From sequence record OZ035805.1: a stretch of 44,101 nucleotides of DNA. One strand, written 5' to 3'. Position 1 is the first letter of the stretch, and every line of letters begins with the position of its first letter. The position numbers were made by a program, and so were the translations under genes. This document shows, one piece after another, positions 3,956 to 32,733 of the stretch. The notes beneath the pieces were generated by a model. That model was not told the DNA's origin. It did no database searches and saw only the letters and a program-made list of their open reading frames with translations. The stretch is from Kagunavirus BCH953P1.

Positions 3956-3985
3956 AGGCCCCGTTAAGGGGCCTTAGTTTTATTT
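3956..3985 (+). terminator. rho-independent terminator
   Basis: stem AGGCCCC / GGGGCCT with 5-nt loop followed by TAGTTTTATTT. Confidence 0.6.
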
Positions 3986-4201
3986 AAAGAATATCGCGAA
4001 CTTCTTGTAACCCGCTGGCTCGTTGCGCTGACCATGTTCGATAGCAAAACGTTGAACGTTGTTAAAATCGTTCTCTTCCATACCGTCGGTGCAAAAGGTA
4101 AAAAAAAAGTTACGTTTGTTTCCGATAAGCACACGGCTCGCAACATCAATGCTGTAAAGTTCTTCGATAGCGCGTACCACGTTTGCAGTAGCTTTGTTCA
4201 T
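3980..4201 (-). CDS. hypothetical protein (antisense insertion in head module)
   Basis: 73 aa ORF opposite to flanking genes; AGGA SD 8 nt upstream; own upstream promoter repeat; contains T9 homopolymer encoding FFF. Confidence 0.5.
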   Translation of the reverse strand: MNKATANVVRAIEELYSIDVASRVLIGNKRNFFFTFCTDGMEENDFNNVQRFAIEHGQRNEPAGYKKFAIFFK

Positions 4202-4236
4202 TTCTAAATTCCTTATCTCTCGTTTCGATGTAATGA

Positions 4237-4265
4237 ATAGTACCCTATTATATTGGGGTGCGCAA
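4237..4265 (-). promoter_or_regulatory. promoter-like element TTGCGC-17-TACTAT with AATAG-N4-CTATT palindrome
   Basis: part of 32-bp exact repeat (4234-4265 = 13779-13810) placed about 35 bp upstream of minus-strand gene start at 4201. Confidence 0.45.
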
Positions 4266-4584: not shown

Positions 4585-4971
4585 ATGAATCTTAAAGCAA
4601 CTGTCGTAGCAGGAGCATGTTTCATCGTCCTGGCTTACGCACACGGCATCTACCAGTATCGCAGCGGCTGGAACGAAGGCCGGGCGAATCTCGTTTCGCA
4701 GCAACAGCAGAAGGCGCAGGCTGAGTTAGCGAAGAAAACACAACGGCAGCAGCAGGACGAATCAAAGGCTGCCGCTGCTGACAACGAAGGCAAGACGAAA
4801 TCAGAGGTGATTACCCGTGAAGTCGTTAAGTACATTAAAACGCCTGGCCGCAGCGTGTGCACTTTTGACCCTGAGCGCGTGCAGCTCAAGTCCCGCGCCG
4901 TCGCAAACGCAAATTCCATCCCCGGATACGACGATGATGCAGCCACCGTGCAAACTGGCACCGCCAAGTAG
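4585..4971 (+). CDS. i-spanin (Rz-like)
   Basis: 128 aa; N-terminal TM segment (VVAGACFIVLAYAHGI) then Q/A/K-rich helical region; o-spanin gene begins inside its 3' end in another frame. Confidence 0.8.
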   Translation: MNLKATVVAGACFIVLAYAHGIYQYRSGWNEGRANLVSQQQQKAQAELAKKTQRQQQDESKAAAADNEGKTKSEVITREVVKYIKTPGRSVCTFDPERVQLKSRAVANANSIPGYDDDAATVQTGTAK

Positions 4972-9741: not shown

Positions 9742-10154
9742 TGGGCTACTTTGAGGACTTAACAAAAGCGTTCGATGTGCCGCTGGTAGCCTTCGGAACC
9801 ACCAACGGCATCAGGGTAGCGCTTGAAAATATCGACGCGCCGACGTCAACCGATACGCCGTATCTGGCAAGTTACATGTTGCTGGCGGATACGGAACAGG
9901 CTGACCTATTCTTCACCGAGCAACGCGCCGGTGTTTATCAGGTCGACATTAACTACGCATCGGTGAAAGGTAGCGCGCCAATCAATAAAATGGCAGACTT
10001 ACTCAACACGGCGTTTAAAGCAGGTAAGTCATTTTCACGTAACGACATCTGCGCCGAGGTTCAATCGGTTAGCCTGGGGCCGCTGATTGTAGAAAACGGA
10101 TGGGCCAAACGACCATTGTCAATTAACTTTATTGCATTCACCAAGAGGCTGTGA
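9738..10154 (+). CDS. tail completion / terminator protein (putative)
   Basis: 138 aa directly upstream of major tail gene. Confidence 0.5.
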   Translation: MMGYFEDLTKAFDVPLVAFGTTNGIRVALENIDAPTSTDTPYLASYMLLADTEQADLFFTEQRAGVYQVDINYASVKGSAPINKMADLLNTAFKAGKSFSRNDICAEVQSVSLGPLIVENGWAKRPLSINFIAFTKRL

Positions 10155-11323
10155 ATATGGCTACAACTCCTTTTAAGGGCGCGAATACCGCGCAATTCTA
10201 TGTGGCGGAAACTACCCCGGGCGTAACACCGACTAACCCGGTCTGGTCGCCGTTGCGTAACACAGGCGGCGTCCCTGCTATTACCCGAGACACGCTGACA
10301 TCCAACGAACTGGACGGCAGCCGCGAAACTACATCCATCCGCACCGGTAACAAACAGGTTAGCGGAGAATACGCCATCGAGCTTAGTTCGAAAAGCCAGG
10401 ATGACTGGCTGGCAGGTGCCTTAGGCTCTGCGTGGCAATCAGGTGTATCCTTGACTGACCTGTCAATTACCGTCGCACCGGCGGGCAAGACGTTCACCCG
10501 TGCTGATGGCAGCTTTATTTCTGATGGCGTTGAAGTGGGCGACCTGGTCGCGTTCACCGACTTAACGGGCGACAACGCTAAACCGTTCATCGTAACCGAG
10601 GTAAGTGCGACTGTTGTCACCGGCGCTGGTATCCAACATACTCTGACCACTGAGACAGTAACTACCGCCGCTAAGACCGGAGACAAACTGGAAACCGGTA
10701 GCCAGTGTAAGACGTTCTCTATCCTCACCTGGTACAAAGGACAGTGCGGCGGCGCCAGCGCATACACGTTGACCAAAGGCGTAGAAGTTTCTGGGTTCAC
10801 AGTTGAACAGGCTGTTAATGCGATGGTAACAGGCAGCTTCCCGTTTATCGGGCGTACCCAGGAGATTCTTACCGAGCCACCGTCTGGCTCTGATTTCTCC
10901 TCTGTTATGTTCGAGGATGAGCCGTTCTCCTCTGTTGACGTTTCCGTGTTTGATGGCTCTACGCCGTTACGCTGTGATAGCCTGACCATCACCAACGATA
11001 ACAGCGCGTCCGCACAGTTCGAACTCGGCAACACTAACGTAGCGTTTGTGGAGCGTAGCCGCGCGGCTAATACCTTCTCCATCTCCGGTAAGCTGTACGA
11101 CATGGCGATGATTCAGAAGTTTATCAACGAACAGCAGGTAGAGATTAACTCTATTCTGGCGGGGGTAAATGGGGCTATGTCTTTTAGTTTGAAACGTGCA
11201 GAACTTACAGCAGTCACACCAGAGATTGGCGGGCCCGAGTCAATCACTCAGAGCATAGAAGGCCAGGCTACGGGAAACCAGTACCAGTCGTCTATTGTTA
11301 TCCAGCGTATCACTTACGCATAA
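10151..11323 (+). CDS. major tail protein
   Basis: 390 aa; precedes chaperone and tape measure genes; followed by strong terminator. Confidence 0.7.
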   Translation: MNMATTPFKGANTAQFYVAETTPGVTPTNPVWSPLRNTGGVPAITRDTLTSNELDGSRETTSIRTGNKQVSGEYAIELSSKSQDDWLAGALGSAWQSGVSLTDLSITVAPAGKTFTRADGSFISDGVEVGDLVAFTDLTGDNAKPFIVTEVSATVVTGAGIQHTLTTETVTTAAKTGDKLETGSQCKTFSILTWYKGQCGGASAYTLTKGVEVSGFTVEQAVNAMVTGSFPFIGRTQEILTEPPSGSDFSSVMFEDEPFSSVDVSVFDGSTPLRCDSLTITNDNSASAQFELGNTNVAFVERSRAANTFSISGKLYDMAMIQKFINEQQVEINSILAGVNGAMSFSLKRAELTAVTPEIGGPESITQSIEGQATGNQYQSSIVIQRITYA

Positions 11324-11327
11324 AACT

Positions 11328-11353
11328 AAGGCCCCTTTCGGGGCCTTTTTCTT
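11328..11353. terminator. terminator between convergent genes
   Basis: stem AAGGCCCC / GGGGCCTT with TTTC loop, T-run on plus side; separates plus major tail gene and minus kinase gene. Confidence 0.65.
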
Positions 11354-11906
11354 ACAAACCTAATTTTAAAGCAATGTCTATAACGTTGGATTTAACGTCA
11401 CCCGGTATGATGTAGGTGTCGTAATCTTCTACACCATCAACGCCGTACAGATAACCGCGGCTGTCCCCCTCAAACGTATAGCCTTCTCGGTGCAAGCGAA
11501 CGATTCTTACATCATGACCCGCGGTGACGATAGGGGTTACTTCGCTGGAGAACCCGCCATCAGACACCACAAAAACTTCGTCGCCGTCGGGCAAGTTTCC
11601 GGCAAGATACTTACCGAAATAATCATCACCGAATACCGGTTTAATGAATTGCTCCGAAATGGCAATCATGAACTGACGACGGGACAACCCATTAAGAAAA
11701 CCCTCTGGCTTTTCTTTCCGCGCCCGGTCGTCGTAGCCGTCGAGAAATTCGTGGTAAGCATCCGGGCCTAACGCTGCCAGAGCAATATTGAACATTGGAT
11801 TCTTGAAACTGGTAGTTCCTTTTGCAAAGCCCATTTCTACCAGCGCCATAGCAAGCGTGTCTTTCCCGCAACCCGCAGGGCCATTAAGAATAATTACCTT
11901 AGCCAT
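11352..11906 (-). CDS. dNMP kinase-like P-loop kinase
   Basis: 184 aa; P-loop GPAGCGKDT (GKDT variant as in T4 gp1-type dNMP kinases). Confidence 0.6.
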   Translation of the reverse strand: MAKVIILNGPAGCGKDTLAMALVEMGFAKGTTSFKNPMFNIALAALGPDAYHEFLDGYDDRARKEKPEGFLNGLSRRQFMIAISEQFIKPVFGDDYFGKYLAGNLPDGDEVFVVSDGGFSSEVTPIVTAGHDVRIVRLHREGYTFEGDSRGYLYGVDGVEDYDTYIIPGDVKSNVIDIALKLGL

Positions 11907-12394
11907 TATTTATCGCTCCCGTGTGATTTTAAGTATGTAGAGTTCCCGTTACAGTCATATTCAGTGACCGCGTGTGTCGTGATTCCTAAGCCGCGGAAAT
12001 GCTTTATTACCGCTGGAGAGTCGTCGAATGCGCACAAGATTCTCTCCAGCCCAATAGCACGCAACACCTCTTCTTTAATTACGATGTCTTTTCTGTTGTC
12101 GTGTTTGCTGCGCATTAACAGAACGTCGAACTTGACATTGTTTTTACGTAACCACTCGCGAGTTTCTTCCTCGGCGTCGTCGCTTCGCCCGGTAAGGATG
12201 ATTACGGTCATCCCGGTATGCCACAACGTGTTGCACAAGTGAATGTTGTCATATATCGGCGAATCATCTTTGCAGGCCATGTTAAAAGGCTTCCACGCCC
12301 AGGTTTCGCCGTAGTTATCTTTTGGCAGCAGGTGTAAGCGATGAGTTCCGTCGGCTAATGTTCCATCTAAATCGAAAATCACAATATCTTTCAT
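11906..12394 (-). CDS. HAD-family phosphatase (5'-deoxynucleotidase-like)
   Basis: 162 aa; N-terminal FDLDGTLAD motif (DxDGT nucleophile motif of the HAD superfamily). Confidence 0.65.
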   Translation of the reverse strand: MKDIVIFDLDGTLADGTHRLHLLPKDNYGETWAWKPFNMACKDDSPIYDNIHLCNTLWHTGMTVIILTGRSDDAEEETREWLRKNNVKFDVLLMRSKHDNRKDIVIKEEVLRAIGLERILCAFDDSPAVIKHFRGLGITTHAVTEYDCNGNSTYLKSHGSDK

Positions 12395-13521
12395 CCCAGC
12401 ATCTCCGGTGAAATAGTTAAACGTGCGACCTCGCCATATTCGGCGCTATAAGTAATTACATTTGCACTACGGCCTGACATCCATCCGCCGCGAGAGGCGT
12501 ATGCGTCTTTAGCCGCTAAGGTGCGGTGTTGCTCAACAATCATGTTACGGCTTTCTACAATCTTTTGATGGTGCAGGTGGCCTACGTGGGCGTAGCTGTA
12601 AACACTCTCGCCGAATGCTTTGCGGAACTTGGCAATCATAACCGGTTCGATAGCGTCGAAGCGTGCTTTATGTCCGTGATGGAAGAACAGCGTAGTTTTG
12701 CCGTGTTGTACCATCTTGTAAACATCCGGCGACGTATCGACAACCACTCGGCTGTCGTTCGAATATAAAACTGTGAACATTTCTGCCAGCCACACGGACC
12801 CTACAGGGTCGTGATTTCCTTGCACGATAAGCAAGCGAACGGTTTTATGTTTAACCAGCGCCATATCAACAACACGGCGCACCATACGAATCATGTAGCG
12901 GACAAGTTTCTGGTAGCGAGTGTCCGCGTCCAACACATGACGTGACTCAGGAGTAACGGCATCCAGACTATCGAAGTGCGCGAAGTCGCCTAGCAGGTTA
13001 ATAACTCCCGTTCCTGCATCCGGTGCTTTCTGAAACGCCGCATCGAACCAACGGGAGAACAGGTCTTCCGCAATTTTCATGTCCCAGTCGTCGCCACTCT
13101 CGTCGGCCCATGCCAGCATACCGAGATGGAAATCAGATACCGTGTAAAGATTGAGTAGCTTGTCGTCGCGTTTAGCGTGAACGGCTTTAACAGGTGCAAC
13201 GGGTGTAATCTCTGACTTCATGCCTTCAATTACGGCTTTCATCAACTCTATCTGACGTTCGGCGTCAGTATCGGTCTTAACCCATTGCAACTTAGTGTTG
13301 CCGAACTCGTCCACAAGTGACGACGTGCCTTTAATTTTGTAGCCGTCCGGGACAAGGTGGCTAACGTCGCGCCCGTGGCCTACGCCTTTCTTAGCCAGCT
13401 TCGCTTTACGGATGCGAATAACGCGGTCTGAGATGCCATATTTACGGGCTATATCGATAGTTTTAACTCCGGCGTTCAATTCTTCCTGTAACTGCTCGTC
13501 GGTTATTTTCTTCCGGGCCAT
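12391..13521 (-). CDS. metallophosphoesterase with N-terminal HTH domain
   Basis: 376 aa; calcineurin-like motifs DFH, GDFAH, GNHD, FHHGH, GHLHH; N-terminal HTH-like segment. Confidence 0.7.
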   Translation of the reverse strand: MARKKITDEQLQEELNAGVKTIDIARKYGISDRVIRIRKAKLAKKGVGHGRDVSHLVPDGYKIKGTSSLVDEFGNTKLQWVKTDTDAERQIELMKAVIEGMKSEITPVAPVKAVHAKRDDKLLNLYTVSDFHLGMLAWADESGDDWDMKIAEDLFSRWFDAAFQKAPDAGTGVINLLGDFAHFDSLDAVTPESRHVLDADTRYQKLVRYMIRMVRRVVDMALVKHKTVRLLIVQGNHDPVGSVWLAEMFTVLYSNDSRVVVDTSPDVYKMVQHGKTTLFFHHGHKARFDAIEPVMIAKFRKAFGESVYSYAHVGHLHHQKIVESRNMIVEQHRTLAAKDAYASRGGWMSGRSANVITYSAEYGEVARLTISPEMLG

Positions 13522-13559
13522 GCTTACTTCCTCGTGTTTAGGATTTGTCCTATGCTAGC

Positions 13560-13751
13560 TCACTTCTCGTTAACATTCGAGTTGCACGCCCAGATTAAAA
13601 TAAATACCCACGGCAGCAGAATCCAACCAAGAAACAGGTTGGCCATGAATATCGCTAACTTCGCTTTATGGTTACGGAAGTACGCAACCAGGAAAGGTGC
13701 GAAATAAGCGAGAAGTGCAAACAGAATTAAGGAAACCGGTAAACTTGACAT
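13560..13751 (-). CDS. small membrane protein
   Basis: 63 aa, two hydrophobic segments; ATG at 13751 preceded by AAGGGG SD (the track start at 13766 lacks an SD). Confidence 0.5.
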   Translation of the reverse strand: MSSLPVSLILFALLAYFAPFLVAYFRNHKAKLAIFMANLFLGWILLPWVFILIWACNSNVNEK

Positions 13752-13781
13752 TTTAAACCCCTTCATTGTTGGTGTAAGTGA

Positions 13782-13810
13782 ATAGTACCCTATTATATTG
13801 GGGTGCGCAA
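13782..13810 (-). promoter_or_regulatory. promoter-like element TTGCGC-17-TACTAT with AATAG-N4-CTATT palindrome
   Basis: second copy of the 32-bp exact repeat, upstream of the antisense four-gene operon. Confidence 0.45.
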
Positions 13811-13918
13811 GTAATGTGATAGAATAATTTTGCGCCTAGTGTCGCACACGAAAAGCGGGTGGTTCCCGTCTGGCGCATTTACCCTTAACCTGTAACCTCT
13901 TAACCAAAGGATTAAAGA

Positions 13919-14338
13919 ATGAAACTTTCTGATTTCTATTTCGAAGAGAAAGCACTGGTAGGCAAGAAGATGCCGATTCTGCTACCAAACGGCGAAGACT
14001 CCGGTGAGTGGCTTAATGTTGTAAGTCCGGATGCCGATGTCGCCGTTAAAGCGGGGCGTGCTTTCATTATCGCATACCGTCGCGGGCGGGCGCGTTTCGA
14101 AGAACTGGAAAAAGCTGCCAAAGAATCCGGCGACTATACTGAATATAACCTGGCGATTAATGAGCTAGCGGAAGACCTCAACCGGCAACTCGCGGCGGAA
14201 GTCGTAAACGGCTGGAGCTTCGACGACGAGCCTTTCTCTAAGGAAGCGTTTAACAAATTGCTCGACCAGTTTAAAGGGCTTGGAACCCAGGTAGCAGCGT
14301 TCCATAACGCTGAGCGCAAAGCATTACAGGAAAAGTAG
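13919..14338 (+). CDS. tail assembly chaperone (G-like)
   Basis: 139 aa directly upstream of tape measure gene; downstream ORF overlaps in -1 frame. Confidence 0.7.
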   Translation: MKLSDFYFEEKALVGKKMPILLPNGEDSGEWLNVVSPDADVAVKAGRAFIIAYRRGRARFEELEKAAKESGDYTEYNLAINELAEDLNRQLAAEVVNGWSFDDEPFSKEAFNKLLDQFKGLGTQVAAFHNAERKALQEK

Positions 14339-14703
14339 ACGCGCTGTACAGGTTCGCCACCTACGAGTTCGTTGATAAGCATAAAATCAGAGAGTTTGAT
14401 TCTATAGCTGACGGACACGAACAGGCGCTTATCGCGATGGGTGTAATCGATAAGAAAAAACGTGCAGCGCGACGGGGTGGGCCAGAATGCCCGCCCCTTT
14501 TTATATCCACCTTTGAGACGTACTGTGACATTAAGTTTACGCGACACGTGCGCGAGGACGCTGTAGTATTGTTTGCAAGAGAATCCGTTACGTGGCAAGA
14601 CCTGAAAGCCTATCTCGATGTTACGCAAAAACAGCTTAGCCTGTTCGAGATAGACATTATCATGGGCTTAGAAGCAATCTTTGAAGGTAGAAATCATGGC
14701 TGA
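13919..14703 (+). CDS. tail assembly chaperone frameshift fusion (GT-like) via putative -1 frameshift
   Basis: frame -1 is open from 14314 to 14703 and overlaps the last 25 nt of the upstream ORF; A-rich GGAAAAG at 14329-14335; conserved arrangement upstream of tape measure genes. Confidence 0.5.
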
Positions 14704-16969
14704 TACCGCTAGCTTGATAGTACGAGTATCTTCGACCGGCGTCGATAAAACCACATCACAACTGAACGGGCTTACCAAAGCCGCAGGTGCCGCCGCGGCT
14801 GCCGTTGTCAGTCTGGAAACCGCTAAGCAGGTGTTCAGCGCGCTGGTGGACTCTCAGCGCAACTTCGATAAGCTGAACTCCGGCCTCATCACAATGACCG
14901 GTAGCGCTGAGAACGCGGCTAAGGCTTTCAGCGTCCTGCAACAGTTCGCAAAAGAAACCCCGTATGGTCTCAATCAGGCGGTAGAAGGTTTCACTAAGCT
15001 GGTTGCCCTAGGCCTGAACCCCAGCAAAGAGGCGTTAATCTCCTACGGCAATACCGCTGCCGCGATGGGTAAAGACCTTAATCAGATGATTGAGGCCGTA
15101 GCGGACGCCAGTACATTTGAGTTTGAACGACTAAAAGAGTTTGGCATCAAGTCGTCACAGCAGGCGGATACCGTTTCTTTCACGTTCCGCGGCGTAACAA
15201 CTACTGTCAAAAAGAACTCCGAAGAGATTCAGAAATACCTGCTAAACATCGGTAACACTGATTTCGCCGGGGCGATGGAGACGCGTTCGAAGACCTTAGA
15301 TGGTCAGTTATCCAGCCTGGCGGACTCTTTCGATGGCCTTGTTCTTGCGGTAGCGCAATCCGGTTTTGGCGATGCCGTAGGTGAGCAGGCCGCGATGGCA
15401 GAAGACGCAGTAACGGCGCTTACCGACGCCATCGCGTCTAATGAGATAGCTGCCACACTCCAGGACTGGGCGACGCTGTTCAATGAGTCGTTCAAGTTTA
15501 TTTCTGACGCCTTGAATGACCTGGCATACGACACCGAGGACAAATCCGCAGACATGTCTGACTCGCTGGGGACTATACCGGATGCTATCCGTGAGTGGTT
15601 GCCTGAGATTCAAAGAATAGCGAAGGATATGTATGTAGAGTTCCAGGCTATTGACATGCAAGCGGCGCTTCTGGCGCAGTCTATTAAAGCCGCCTTCACC
15701 CCAGGTGAAACAGCGGCGGGTACATTTGCCGCGGGTCAGGCCGCCGTTCAGTTCTTCAAAGACACTGAAAAGGCGAAAAACAAGGCTGAGGCGGACGGGA
15801 TAACCCAACGCTCGAAGCAGCGTAAGAAAGAAATTGAGGAACAGCGCAAGCAGTACGACGAGCGCAAGAAGCAAGAAATTGACTTAGCCAGCCTTGTTAA
15901 TAAAAAAGGTGGAACTGGCGGCACCGGTAACGCCGACGATAAAGCGGCAAAAGCAGCCGCTAAGAAAGCTGAGCAATTGCGAAATCAGGCGCAGGATTAC
16001 CTCGACACTTTGGCCCGTCAGAACAACGACGAGTTAAAGGCTATTGACGCGCAGGAACAGCAGAAACTGGCTAAAGCAAAAGAGTTCTACAGCCAGGGTG
16101 CGTTGTCTCTGAAAGAATACGAACAAGCTAAAACAGCTATCGTCCTCGAAGCCGGACAAAAACGGCAAGATGAACTGGATAAACGCCAGAAAGAAGCCCT
16201 GGAAAAGCAGCAGAAAGGTGACGACTTCATGGCCCAGATTATGGGTCAGAACGCTACTGAGCTTGAGCTTCTCGACATCCAGGAACAGCAGAAACTGGCG
16301 GTAGCCGATAAGTACCGGGAGCAAGGGCTTATTAGCGAGAAGCAGTATCAGGCCGCGCTTAACGCCATCAACGAGCAATATGCCACCAAGCGCGCCGACG
16401 CAACGGCAACCGCCTTCGGTAACATGGCCTCAAACATCGGGTCTGCGTTGGGGGAGGCTTCCGGTGCGTATAAGGCATTCGCTATCGTACAGGCCACTAT
16501 CGCCACGTACACCGCAGCTATTGAGGCGTACAAGTCAACGGCTGCTATCCCTGTTGTTGGCCCGTTCCTTGCCCCTGTAGCCGCTGCCGCTGCCGTTGGG
16601 GCGGGTATGGCGCAGGTTTCCGCTATCAGGTCTGCGCGTGAGCAGGGGGGCCAGTTATCCGCGGGGCAGGCTTCCACCATCGCCGAACGCGGTAAACCCG
16701 AAGTTATCATGCCCGCTGGCGCATCGCGTGTGCGCACCGCGCAGCAGATGAAAGAAATTATGGGGCAAAACGGGTCTTCTTCCGGACCATCTAATGTTAC
16801 TATCGTAAACAACACGAGTTCTCAAATCGGCAATGTATCCACCGAACAGGATGATGAGGGCCGTCTGCGTATCATCATAGAAGAGCAAGTTGCTGCATCT
16901 TTGCAGAACAGCAACAGTAAGATTAGCAAGGCCCGCAAGGCCACAAGAAATGCGCCGGGGTTTAAATAA
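14696..16969 (+). CDS. tail tape measure protein
   Basis: about 757 aa, Ala/Gln/Lys/Glu-rich helical protein; longest gene of tail block (track ORF starts with TTG at 14681). Confidence 0.85.
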   Translation: MADTASLIVRVSSTGVDKTTSQLNGLTKAAGAAAAAVVSLETAKQVFSALVDSQRNFDKLNSGLITMTGSAENAAKAFSVLQQFAKETPYGLNQAVEGFTKLVALGLNPSKEALISYGNTAAAMGKDLNQMIEAVADASTFEFERLKEFGIKSSQQADTVSFTFRGVTTTVKKNSEEIQKYLLNIGNTDFAGAMETRSKTLDGQLSSLADSFDGLVLAVAQSGFGDAVGEQAAMAEDAVTALTDAIASNEIAATLQDWATLFNESFKFISDALNDLAYDTEDKSADMSDSLGTIPDAIREWLPEIQRIAKDMYVEFQAIDMQAALLAQSIKAAFTPGETAAGTFAAGQAAVQFFKDTEKAKNKAEADGITQRSKQRKKEIEEQRKQYDERKKQEIDLASLVNKKGGTGGTGNADDKAAKAAAKKAEQLRNQAQDYLDTLARQNNDELKAIDAQEQQKLAKAKEFYSQGALSLKEYEQAKTAIVLEAGQKRQDELDKRQKEALEKQQKGDDFMAQIMGQNATELELLDIQEQQKLAVADKYREQGLISEKQYQAALNAINEQYATKRADATATAFGNMASNIGSALGEASGAYKAFAIVQATIATYTAAIEAYKSTAAIPVVGPFLAPVAAAAAVGAGMAQVSAIRSAREQGGQLSAGQASTIAERGKPEVIMPAGASRVRTAQQMKEIMGQNGSSSGPSNVTIVNNTSSQIGNVSTEQDDEGRLRIIIEEQVAASLQNSNSKISKARKATRNAPGFK

Positions 16970-26334: not shown

Positions 26335-26649
26335 TTATAATTCCTTATATTGTTGGGGTATGTGCTTACTATAATAGTCTGCTATTAGGGTGTCAACCTG
26401 TTTTATAGAGCCAACCACAAAAACATTTGCGCCGCGTTTGCGCATCCGCTCATGTTCTCGTAGCTGGTGCGGGTCTGGCTTCGTGTTTTCGTCTTTCTTA
26501 ACCTCGACAAACCATATGATGCCGCCGGGGAGCATTACCAGCAAGTCGGGGGCGCCGGAGCGCCCCTCGTAGGAAAGTTTACGAACGAGGCCCCCCAGGG
26601 CCTCGAATCGGTCTTTCGCGTATTTCTGTACGCGGCCCTCTTTAGTCAT
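26335..26649 (-). CDS. VRR-NUC domain nuclease
   Basis: 104 aa; GAPDLLV...WFVEVKK motif typical of VRR-NUC. Confidence 0.7.
   Translation of the reverse strand: MTKEGRVQKYAKDRFEALGGLVRKLSYEGRSGAPDLLVMLPGGIIWFVEVKKDENTKPDPHQLREHERMRKRGANVFVVGSIKQVDTLIADYYSKHIPQQYKEL
26366..26394 (-). promoter_or_regulatory. sigma70-type promoter TTGACA-17-TATAGT with AATAG-N4-CTATT palindrome
   Basis: -35 at 26389-26394 and -10 at 26366-26371 on minus strand; palindrome 26371-26384. Confidence 0.6.
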
Positions 26650-29953: not shown

Positions 29954-29982
29954 ACTATAATAGCTAACTATTCAGGTGTCAA
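29954..29982 (-). promoter_or_regulatory. sigma70-type promoter TTGACA-17-TATAGT with AATAG-N4-CTATT palindrome
   Basis: -35 at 29977-29982 and -10 at 29954-29959 on minus strand; palindrome 29959-29972. Confidence 0.6.
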
Positions 29983-29986
29983 CACT

Positions 29987-32672: not shown

Positions 32673-32703
32673 TTGTTTCTCTCCTCTCGTTTGGTATGGG
32701 CTA

Positions 32704-32733
32704 ACTATAATAGCGAACTATTCATGTTGTCAA
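32704..32733 (-). promoter_or_regulatory. sigma70-type promoter TTGACA-18-TATAGT with AATAG-N4-CTATT palindrome
   Basis: -35 at 32728-32733 and -10 at 32704-32709 on minus strand; palindrome 32709-32722; divergent from HTH gene. Confidence 0.55.

Follow-up and report, generated by a model that had tools for sequence, protein, structure and literature searches.

In phages T4 and T7, nucleases that attack host DNA are coupled with deoxynucleoside monophosphate (dNMP) kinases, gp1 and gp1.7, respectively. In T5, the A1 protein, which has a metallophosphatase fold, was found to be both required and sufficient for the breakdown of host DNA (bioRxiv 10.64898/2026.04.02.716235). A gene block combining related functions was described in a 2026 paper on the Drexlerviridae, in which a gene labelled 'DNA repair exonuclease' is retained by 508 of 522 genomes and lies next to the lysis cassette, polynucleotide kinase (PNK) and dNMP kinase genes being the commonest genes right after it; it was proposed that these two genes probably extend the replication module and enhance nucleotide supply (PMC13164509). 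Here, we analysed the counterpart of this block in Kagunavirus BCH953P1 (Guernseyvirinae; sequence record OZ035805.1), for which the window, that is, the whole stretch of DNA under analysis, comprises 44,101 nucleotides. Four open reading frames (ORFs) on its minus strand span positions 11352-13766, flanked by the tail-tube gene and the tail-chaperone genes, exactly as an earlier note on this DNA had stated. Read leftward, they are predicted to encode a small membrane protein of the T4 Imm superinfection-immunity family (13560-13766), a helix-turn-helix (HTH) metallophosphoesterase of 376 aa (12391-13521), a stand-alone T4 Pnkp-type HAD 3'-phosphatase of 162 aa (11906-12394) and a T4 gp1/T5 Dnk-type P-loop kinase of 184 aa (11352-11906). 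As developed below, the phosphoesterase is the fixed anchor of a conserved antisense slot, the phosphatase-kinase pair is an optional and dispensable cargo inherited as a unit, and a role of the cassette in DNA breakdown and dNMP salvage is considered the most likely.

The three enzyme families stand in the same order in BCH953P1 and in the Drexlerviridae block, as exemplified by Webervirus Call (gp37-39, before the lysis genes), in which the phosphatase and kinase genes overlap. Ahead of the portal gene, Yersinia phage vB_YenM_22 has the trio in this order too (gp51-53), and in the T1-like phage Shfl1 the phosphatase gene adjoins the kinase gene. The Drexlerviridae block lies with replication genes just before the lysis cassette and is co-directional with its neighbours, whereas the block of BCH953P1 is antisense within the tail module and stands behind an imm gene. 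This placement had been regarded as atypical in the earlier note, but synteny does not bear this out. The region 11000-14400 is 99.9% identical to the BCH953P1 record OZ035754 and shares 88-92% DNA identity with annotated phages including EM1 (PQ571293), K1G (NC_027993), fTaEco01 and RP180, and the same slot, orientation and genes are found in the closest Kagunavirus and Guernseyvirinae relatives in GenBank (OZ035754, EM1, K1G and Golestan, NC_042084). The feature is already public and annotated, the equivalent position of EM1 carrying genes named dNMP kinase, polynucleotide kinase, DNA repair exonuclease and superinfection immunity protein. Additionally, the antisense slot and its phosphoesterase are shared by Salmonella phage Jersey (NC_021777) and Jerseyvirus SP8, in which other cargo takes the place of the phosphatase-kinase pair. 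The slot is conserved across Kagunavirus and Jerseyvirus and is ordinary for Guernseyvirinae.

The contents of the slot were surveyed in 73 IMG/VR loci encoding a phosphoesterase relative, in 43 of which the phosphoesterase is antisense between homologues of the tube and chaperone genes. The imm gene is present in 28 of these 43 slot loci, and the phosphatase and kinase genes in 16, always both (co-occurrence 16/16). The remaining 27 loci keep the phosphoesterase and are devoid of the pair, which indicates that the phosphoesterase does not need it. In fact, it is because about half of the loci with a phosphoesterase at least 92% identical are without the pair that the former is regarded as the anchor and the latter as optional cargo. 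The earlier conception of a single four-gene operon for nucleotide metabolism is not supported, considering that the first gene is imm and that, in related phages, unrelated cargo takes the place of the pair next to a retained phosphoesterase. Among 26 loci read downstream of the phosphoesterase, a 76-aa protein of phrog_2452 was found in 24, and the remaining cargo types were an Ant-like anti-repressor, an HNH endonuclease and a 66-aa protein. The 76-aa protein was also considered as a detached C-terminal domain of longer kinases, which was rejected, the longer homologues carrying N-terminal extensions.

The left end of the cassette is marked by a hairpin, AAGGCCCCtttcGGGGCCTT (11328-11347, both strands), which lies in the 28-nt gap between the convergent stop codons of the kinase gene and of the tail-tube gene (10151-11323, plus strand, phrog_290). 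It has a perfect 8-bp stem with six GC pairs and a folding energy of -15.4 kcal/mol on one strand and -19.9 kcal/mol on the other (z = -3.9 on both), and none of 200 shuffled sequences was as stable. The hairpin has the form of an intrinsic terminator, a GC-rich stem followed by a U-tract, with a good T-tract in its plus-strand tail (TTTTTCTT) and a weaker one in its minus-strand tail (AGTTTTAT); it would act in both directions, as a putative terminator common to the cassette and the convergent tail-tube gene. It is kept with at most three mismatches in 47 of the 73 related loci, among them Jerseyvirus-like loci with a tube protein of only 68% identity. In seven IMG/VR loci (L012, L015, L020, L039, L040, L041 and L070), two copies bracket extra cargo downstream of the phosphoesterase, and this duplication suggests that cargo is gained or lost via recombination at the hairpin.

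Such flanking copies, together with the differing cargo beside the phosphoesterase of close relatives, favour the view that the cassette is a mosaic moron island at a recombination hot spot, with no joint pathway. According to this view, the phosphoesterase would act by itself in recombination or replication, in DNA processing near lysis or packaging, or in regulation via its HTH, which resembles sigma region 4, whereas the pair would independently tune nucleotide pools and Imm would independently exclude other phages. Dhillonvirus and phages of Rhodobacter and Vibrio do carry the phosphoesterase gene by itself, usually with lysis genes next to it, and its persistence by the lysis cassette in the Drexlerviridae (PMC13164509) points in the same direction. 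However, the same trio is found in the same order in three distant phage lineages (Kagunavirus, Webervirus and vB_YenM_22) at only 40-60% protein identity, and for this reason selection for linkage is hard to avoid. Moreover, the phosphoesterase and phosphatase genes overlap as ATGA, which suggests co-translation. Taking both sides into account, we consider a mosaic island without joint function a serious but rather unlikely explanation. As a separate observation on gene neighbourhood, in the loci outside Guernseyvirinae (Dhillonvirus, Yersinia, Rhodobacter, Vibrio and Webervirus) the phosphoesterase usually has a conserved position by lysis genes, where these adjoin head or packaging genes.

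The anchor itself has an HTH of three helices at its N-terminus, together with a beta-hairpin domain and a binuclear metallophosphoesterase (MPE) catalytic domain, in which the motifs DxH, GD, GNH(D/E), H and GHxH are all present. Single-sequence Pfam Metallophos matches were below cutoff; the conservation of the catalytic residues was assessed across 61 homologues, whose diversity was drawn from a representative search, as a plain homologue search gave only relatives at least 93% identical. D130, H132, G178-D179, N236-H237, H282, G314 and H317 are invariant in this set; for G235, D238 and H315, conservation is 90% or higher. The family is very large: grouping at 50% identity gives 4554 clusters, and about 2000 phage genomes are represented. 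Its closest folds are the nucleases PolD-DP1, Mre11 and SbcD, from which it would be expected that the enzyme acts on DNA as a nuclease. The MPE core with all its motifs is common to Mre11/SbcD, PolD DP1, the Pseudomonas putida MPE and T5 A1; unlike these nuclease-type enzymes, the BCH953P1 protein has the N-terminal HTH and the beta-hairpin domain, and, in contrast to Mre11/SbcD, neither EM1 nor Jersey has an adjacent gene annotated as a Rad50/SbcC partner. The P. putida enzyme is reported to cleave single-stranded DNA, with some 3'-PO4 ends left (PMC7826289).

Rv0805-like folds are also among the matches of the phosphoesterase, and they are relevant to a counter-defence role, in which the enzyme would degrade cyclic nucleotide or oligonucleotide signals or, alternatively, the phosphatase-kinase pair would restore pools hit by dNTP-depleting defences. 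That a variable accessory island also carries a superinfection-exclusion gene would be in agreement with such a role. On the other hand, nuclease-type folds rank first, the N-terminal HTH, of a DNA-binding type, is conserved, and the gene is near-core in whole phage families, which is unusual for an anti-defence gene; additionally, PADLOC revealed no relation to defence systems. A counter-defence function is, in our opinion, very improbable.

The second enzyme of the cassette matches PF25109 (HAD_PNKP) at 2.9e-20 and phrog_415 at 1e-66, and its PDB matches are Pnkp1 (4xrp) and T4 Pnkp (1ltq/5uj0). Its residues D8, D10, R19, T68 and R70 align to D165, D167, R176, S211 and R213 of T4 Pnkp, and D103, K107, D124 and D125 align to D254, K258, D277 and D278, so that the nucleophile and the acid-base aspartate are kept, as are the Ser/Thr and Lys that bind phosphate, the aspartates that bind Mg, and the arginines. 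For the aligned T4 Pnkp residues other than D165, D167, S211, K258 and D278, the roles were reportedly assigned by mutagenesis in the Shuman laboratory. The catalytic roles of these five are documented (PMC3592404). With its catalytic residues all kept, the protein is classed by homology as a stand-alone T4 Pnkp-type 3'-phosphatase, and it matches 2417 phage records. In relation to T4 Pnkp (PseT), the phosphatase domain is homologous and its catalytic constellation is conserved, but there is no fused kinase domain, the adjoining kinase belongs to another family (that of gp1), and the RNA ligase that is the partner of T4 Pnkp is not encoded in BCH953P1.

The assignment of the kinase was made with reference to T4 gp1 and T4 Pnkp queries whose sequences were verified (the former 100% identical to X03016, the latter also exact). 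The BCH953P1 kinase matches phrog_139 at 4e-43, and T4 gp1 matches the same region of that profile at 1.8e-65. T4 Pnkp, in contrast, matches phrog_505, phrog_415 and phrog_2071, and the kinase matches neither phrog_505 nor phrog_2071. The AF2 model of the kinase (predicted local distance difference test score, pLDDT, of 95) had T4 dNMP kinase (1DEK) as its best PDB match in Foldseek (E 4e-5; TMq 0.66), followed by small-molecule kinases, and T4 PNK (1LTQ) was absent among the top 50 fold matches. In profile comparisons by hhalign, the kinase scored 77% to gp1 and 96% to T5 Dnk, over 49-73 columns in the N-terminal third only, the alignments reaching the region just downstream of the P-loop; the alignment to the Pnkp kinase domain covered only 25 columns around the P-loop. 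Sequence searches against PDB, either with the single sequence or with a profile, gave P-loop matches only. The likeness to the T4 and T5 enzymes consists of the GKDT P-loop (gp1), the PHROG shared with gp1, 1DEK as the best fold, and an SFKNP motif where T5 Dnk has SFAKP just past the P-loop; the differences are the length (184 aa versus 241 and 250) and an identity of only about 18-26%. The kinase has matches in 1534 phage records. Taken together, profile membership and modelled fold indicate that the protein is a gp1/Dnk-type dNMP kinase and not a polynucleotide kinase, and it would be expected to phosphorylate dNMPs to dNDPs. As regards the T5 kinase gene, it was also observed that dnk adjoins two genes annotated as similar to T4 PseT.2 (T5 11267-12746). 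Judged by its name, T4 PseT.2 is presumably a neighbour of the Pnkp gene pseT, which would loosely link dNMP-kinase and pseT-region genes.

These assignments bear directly on the idea, already raised in the earlier note, that kinase and HAD phosphatase reproduce the domain pair of Pnkp and serve end healing, for instance to counter anticodon nucleases. In its full form, tRNA or DNA cut by defence nucleases would be healed by a split system and sealed by a host ligase: the HAD enzyme would clear 3' or 2',3'-cyclic phosphates, the kinase would phosphorylate 5'-OH ends and the phosphoesterase would be a cyclic phosphodiesterase. The HAD half of the comparison is sound, given that the protein is truly homologous to the phosphatase domains of T4 Pnkp and Pnkp1 and that its catalytic residues are intact. 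Its gene overlaps that of the kinase as TAATG, the two being probably translationally coupled, which would also be in line with a split healing system. As for the phosphoesterase, a bacterial Pnkp, CthPnkp, is reported to remove the 2',3'-phosphate through a metallophosphoesterase domain (PMC2190708, PMC3675462). The kinase half does not hold, however, as the affinities of the kinase are with T4 gp1 and T5 Dnk, not with the Pnkp kinase. In addition, neither BCH953P1 nor EM1 encodes an RNA or DNA ligase (none is annotated in EM1, and the ORFs specific to BCH953P1 are a terminase, a tailspike and an SNF2 helicase), which weakens the RNA end-healing reading. The host RNA ligase RtcB of E. coli joins 3'-P or 2',3'>P ends to 5'-OH ends, and since it needs both kinds of end, end healing would remove the substrate of RtcB. 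For these reasons, end healing is judged improbable, and of the two functions that had been suggested for the cassette, nucleotide-pool remodelling is the better supported.

The first gene of the cassette had been described simply as encoding a small membrane protein. The product is indeed small and has two hydrophobic segments in its sequence; more specifically, it belongs to Imm_superinfect (PF14373; E 1.6e-12, 47.6 bits versus a cutoff of 27.9) and matches phrog_1039 at 6e-23. The ORF has 68 codons for amino acids, and its true start is likely the ATG at 13751, which would shorten the product to 63 aa, the length annotated in EM1. It resembles T4 Imm in the above-cutoff PF14373 match and as a small protein with two hydrophobic segments, T4 Imm being the longer of the two. 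Imm is predicted to act apart from the enzymes, by blocking DNA entry by superinfecting phages.

For the three enzymes, the reading that we favour, with confidence a little short of even, is that of a leftward accessory cassette for DNA breakdown and dNMP salvage. The phosphoesterase would cut or degrade DNA, be it that of the host or intermediates of replication and recombination; the HAD enzyme would strip 3'-phosphates from DNA ends or 3'-nucleotides; and the kinase would turn the released dNMPs into dNDPs. The outcome would be a larger dNTP supply for a phage with its own DNA polymerase but without nucleotide-synthesis genes. The annotation of EM1 includes a DNA polymerase, helicases and exonucleases, and no ribonucleotide reductase, thymidylate synthase or ligase. 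By analogy, such a pathway would parallel the nuclease plus dNMP kinase logic of T4 and T7, with the phosphatase-kinase pair probably being helpful but dispensable.

Several points weigh against DNA breakdown and salvage as the function. The first is the absence of the pair from the 27 slot loci that keep the phosphoesterase. Also, a 3'-phosphatase would have no obvious role if the nuclease yields 3'-OH ends and 5'-dNMPs, and the host already has dNMP kinases. Finally, a specific kinship of the phosphoesterase to T5 A1 was considered and rejected (hhalign 17%). A bolder version is that the trio forms one dedicated machine across several siphophage families, which we regard as a long shot. In one variant, the machine may carry out demolition of the host chromosome and salvage, with a nuclease leaving 3'-phosphate ends that the phosphatase must clear. 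In the other, it may heal DNA ends, with a gp1-like kinase recruited to polynucleotide 5'-OH ends and host LigA resealing phage DNA nicked by defence nucleases. If true, either variant would provide the first function for a gene that is near-core in Drexlerviridae and Guernseyvirinae and bears no label other than 'DNA repair exonuclease'.

In addition to the hairpin, a promoter repeat had been reported for the cassette, and both are real and conserved features of the sequence, being a stable hairpin and an exact 32-nt repeat whose activities are predictions from their form. A promoter-like element, ATCACA-17-TATAAT, lies upstream of the imm gene (13779-13820, minus strand) and includes the 32-nt block; a sigma-70-like scan gave a match of 10/12 at 13820-13792 on the minus strand, with the -10 half within the block. 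The 32-nt block, which contains TATAAT, has two exact copies in the genome (13779-13810 and 4234-4265) and is kept at the same position, with at most four mismatches, in 34 of the 73 related loci, whatever the cargo; the EM1 cassette copy has one mismatch. It may be the promoter of the cassette. Further downstream, 38 nt separate the imm and phosphoesterase genes, and a GAGGA ribosome-binding site precedes the latter. The motifs and domains listed earlier for the proteins were also recovered, GCGKDT, FDLDGTLAD, GNHD and GHLHH all being present and the calls of HTH-metallophosphoesterase, HAD phosphatase and T4-type GKDT kinase being upheld by Pfam, PHROG and fold matches.

The second exact copy of the block (4234-4265, minus strand) stands in the head module, upstream of an antisense ORF (3980-4201, 73 aa) that matches phrog_7673, labelled 'internal head protein'. 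The minus strand of 3980-4265 represents a second antisense island, in a position where EM1 holds a Dam methylase. No second copy of the block was found in EM1, including its head-module slot (at most three mismatches), or in Jersey. A different family of repeated blocks occurs at 26357-26397, 29954-29983 and 32693-32722, where the minus strand reads GTTGACACC..-17-TATAGT; by their form, they would be sigma-70 promoters close to consensus, situated among the leftward replication genes.

With regard to the surroundings of the cassette, GC skew is negative over 11-14 kb. The tail assembly chaperone genes (13919-14338 and 14437-14703, phrog_15027) are two ORFs matching residues 1-138 and 173-259 of that one PHROG and lying about 100 nt apart (14338 to 14437), an arrangement consistent with a predicted programmed frameshift of the G/GT chaperone type. 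The tape-measure gene contains a 55-nt direct repeat (16017-16071 and 16245-16299, 71% identity, 228 nt apart), probably an internal repeat of the protein. From collinear relatives, the spanin genes would be placed at 4585-4971, inside the head module and far from the holin and endolysin genes; in EM1 and Jersey, Rz-like spanins are found between the head morphogenesis and scaffold genes.

The cassette is not a new kind of system: its genes are annotated in public genomes and a likely role was already proposed for the Drexlerviridae. Literature searches returned no biochemical or transcriptomic studies of the cassette genes in Guernseyvirinae. Two annotations can be corrected, as the 'polynucleotide kinase' is a predicted stand-alone 3'-phosphatase and the 'ATPase' or 'replication factor C' a predicted gp1-type dNMP kinase. 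In practical terms, the gain is modest. The slot in the tail module of Guernseyvirinae is an island in which cargo is swapped next to a fixed anchor, the uncharacterised HTH-metallophosphoesterase, which is also near-core in several phage families (therapeutic coliphages and Klebsiella phages). Because this family is very large and near-core in therapeutic phage families, its biochemistry is worth testing, and the main interest of the locus lies in the actual role of this widespread enzyme.

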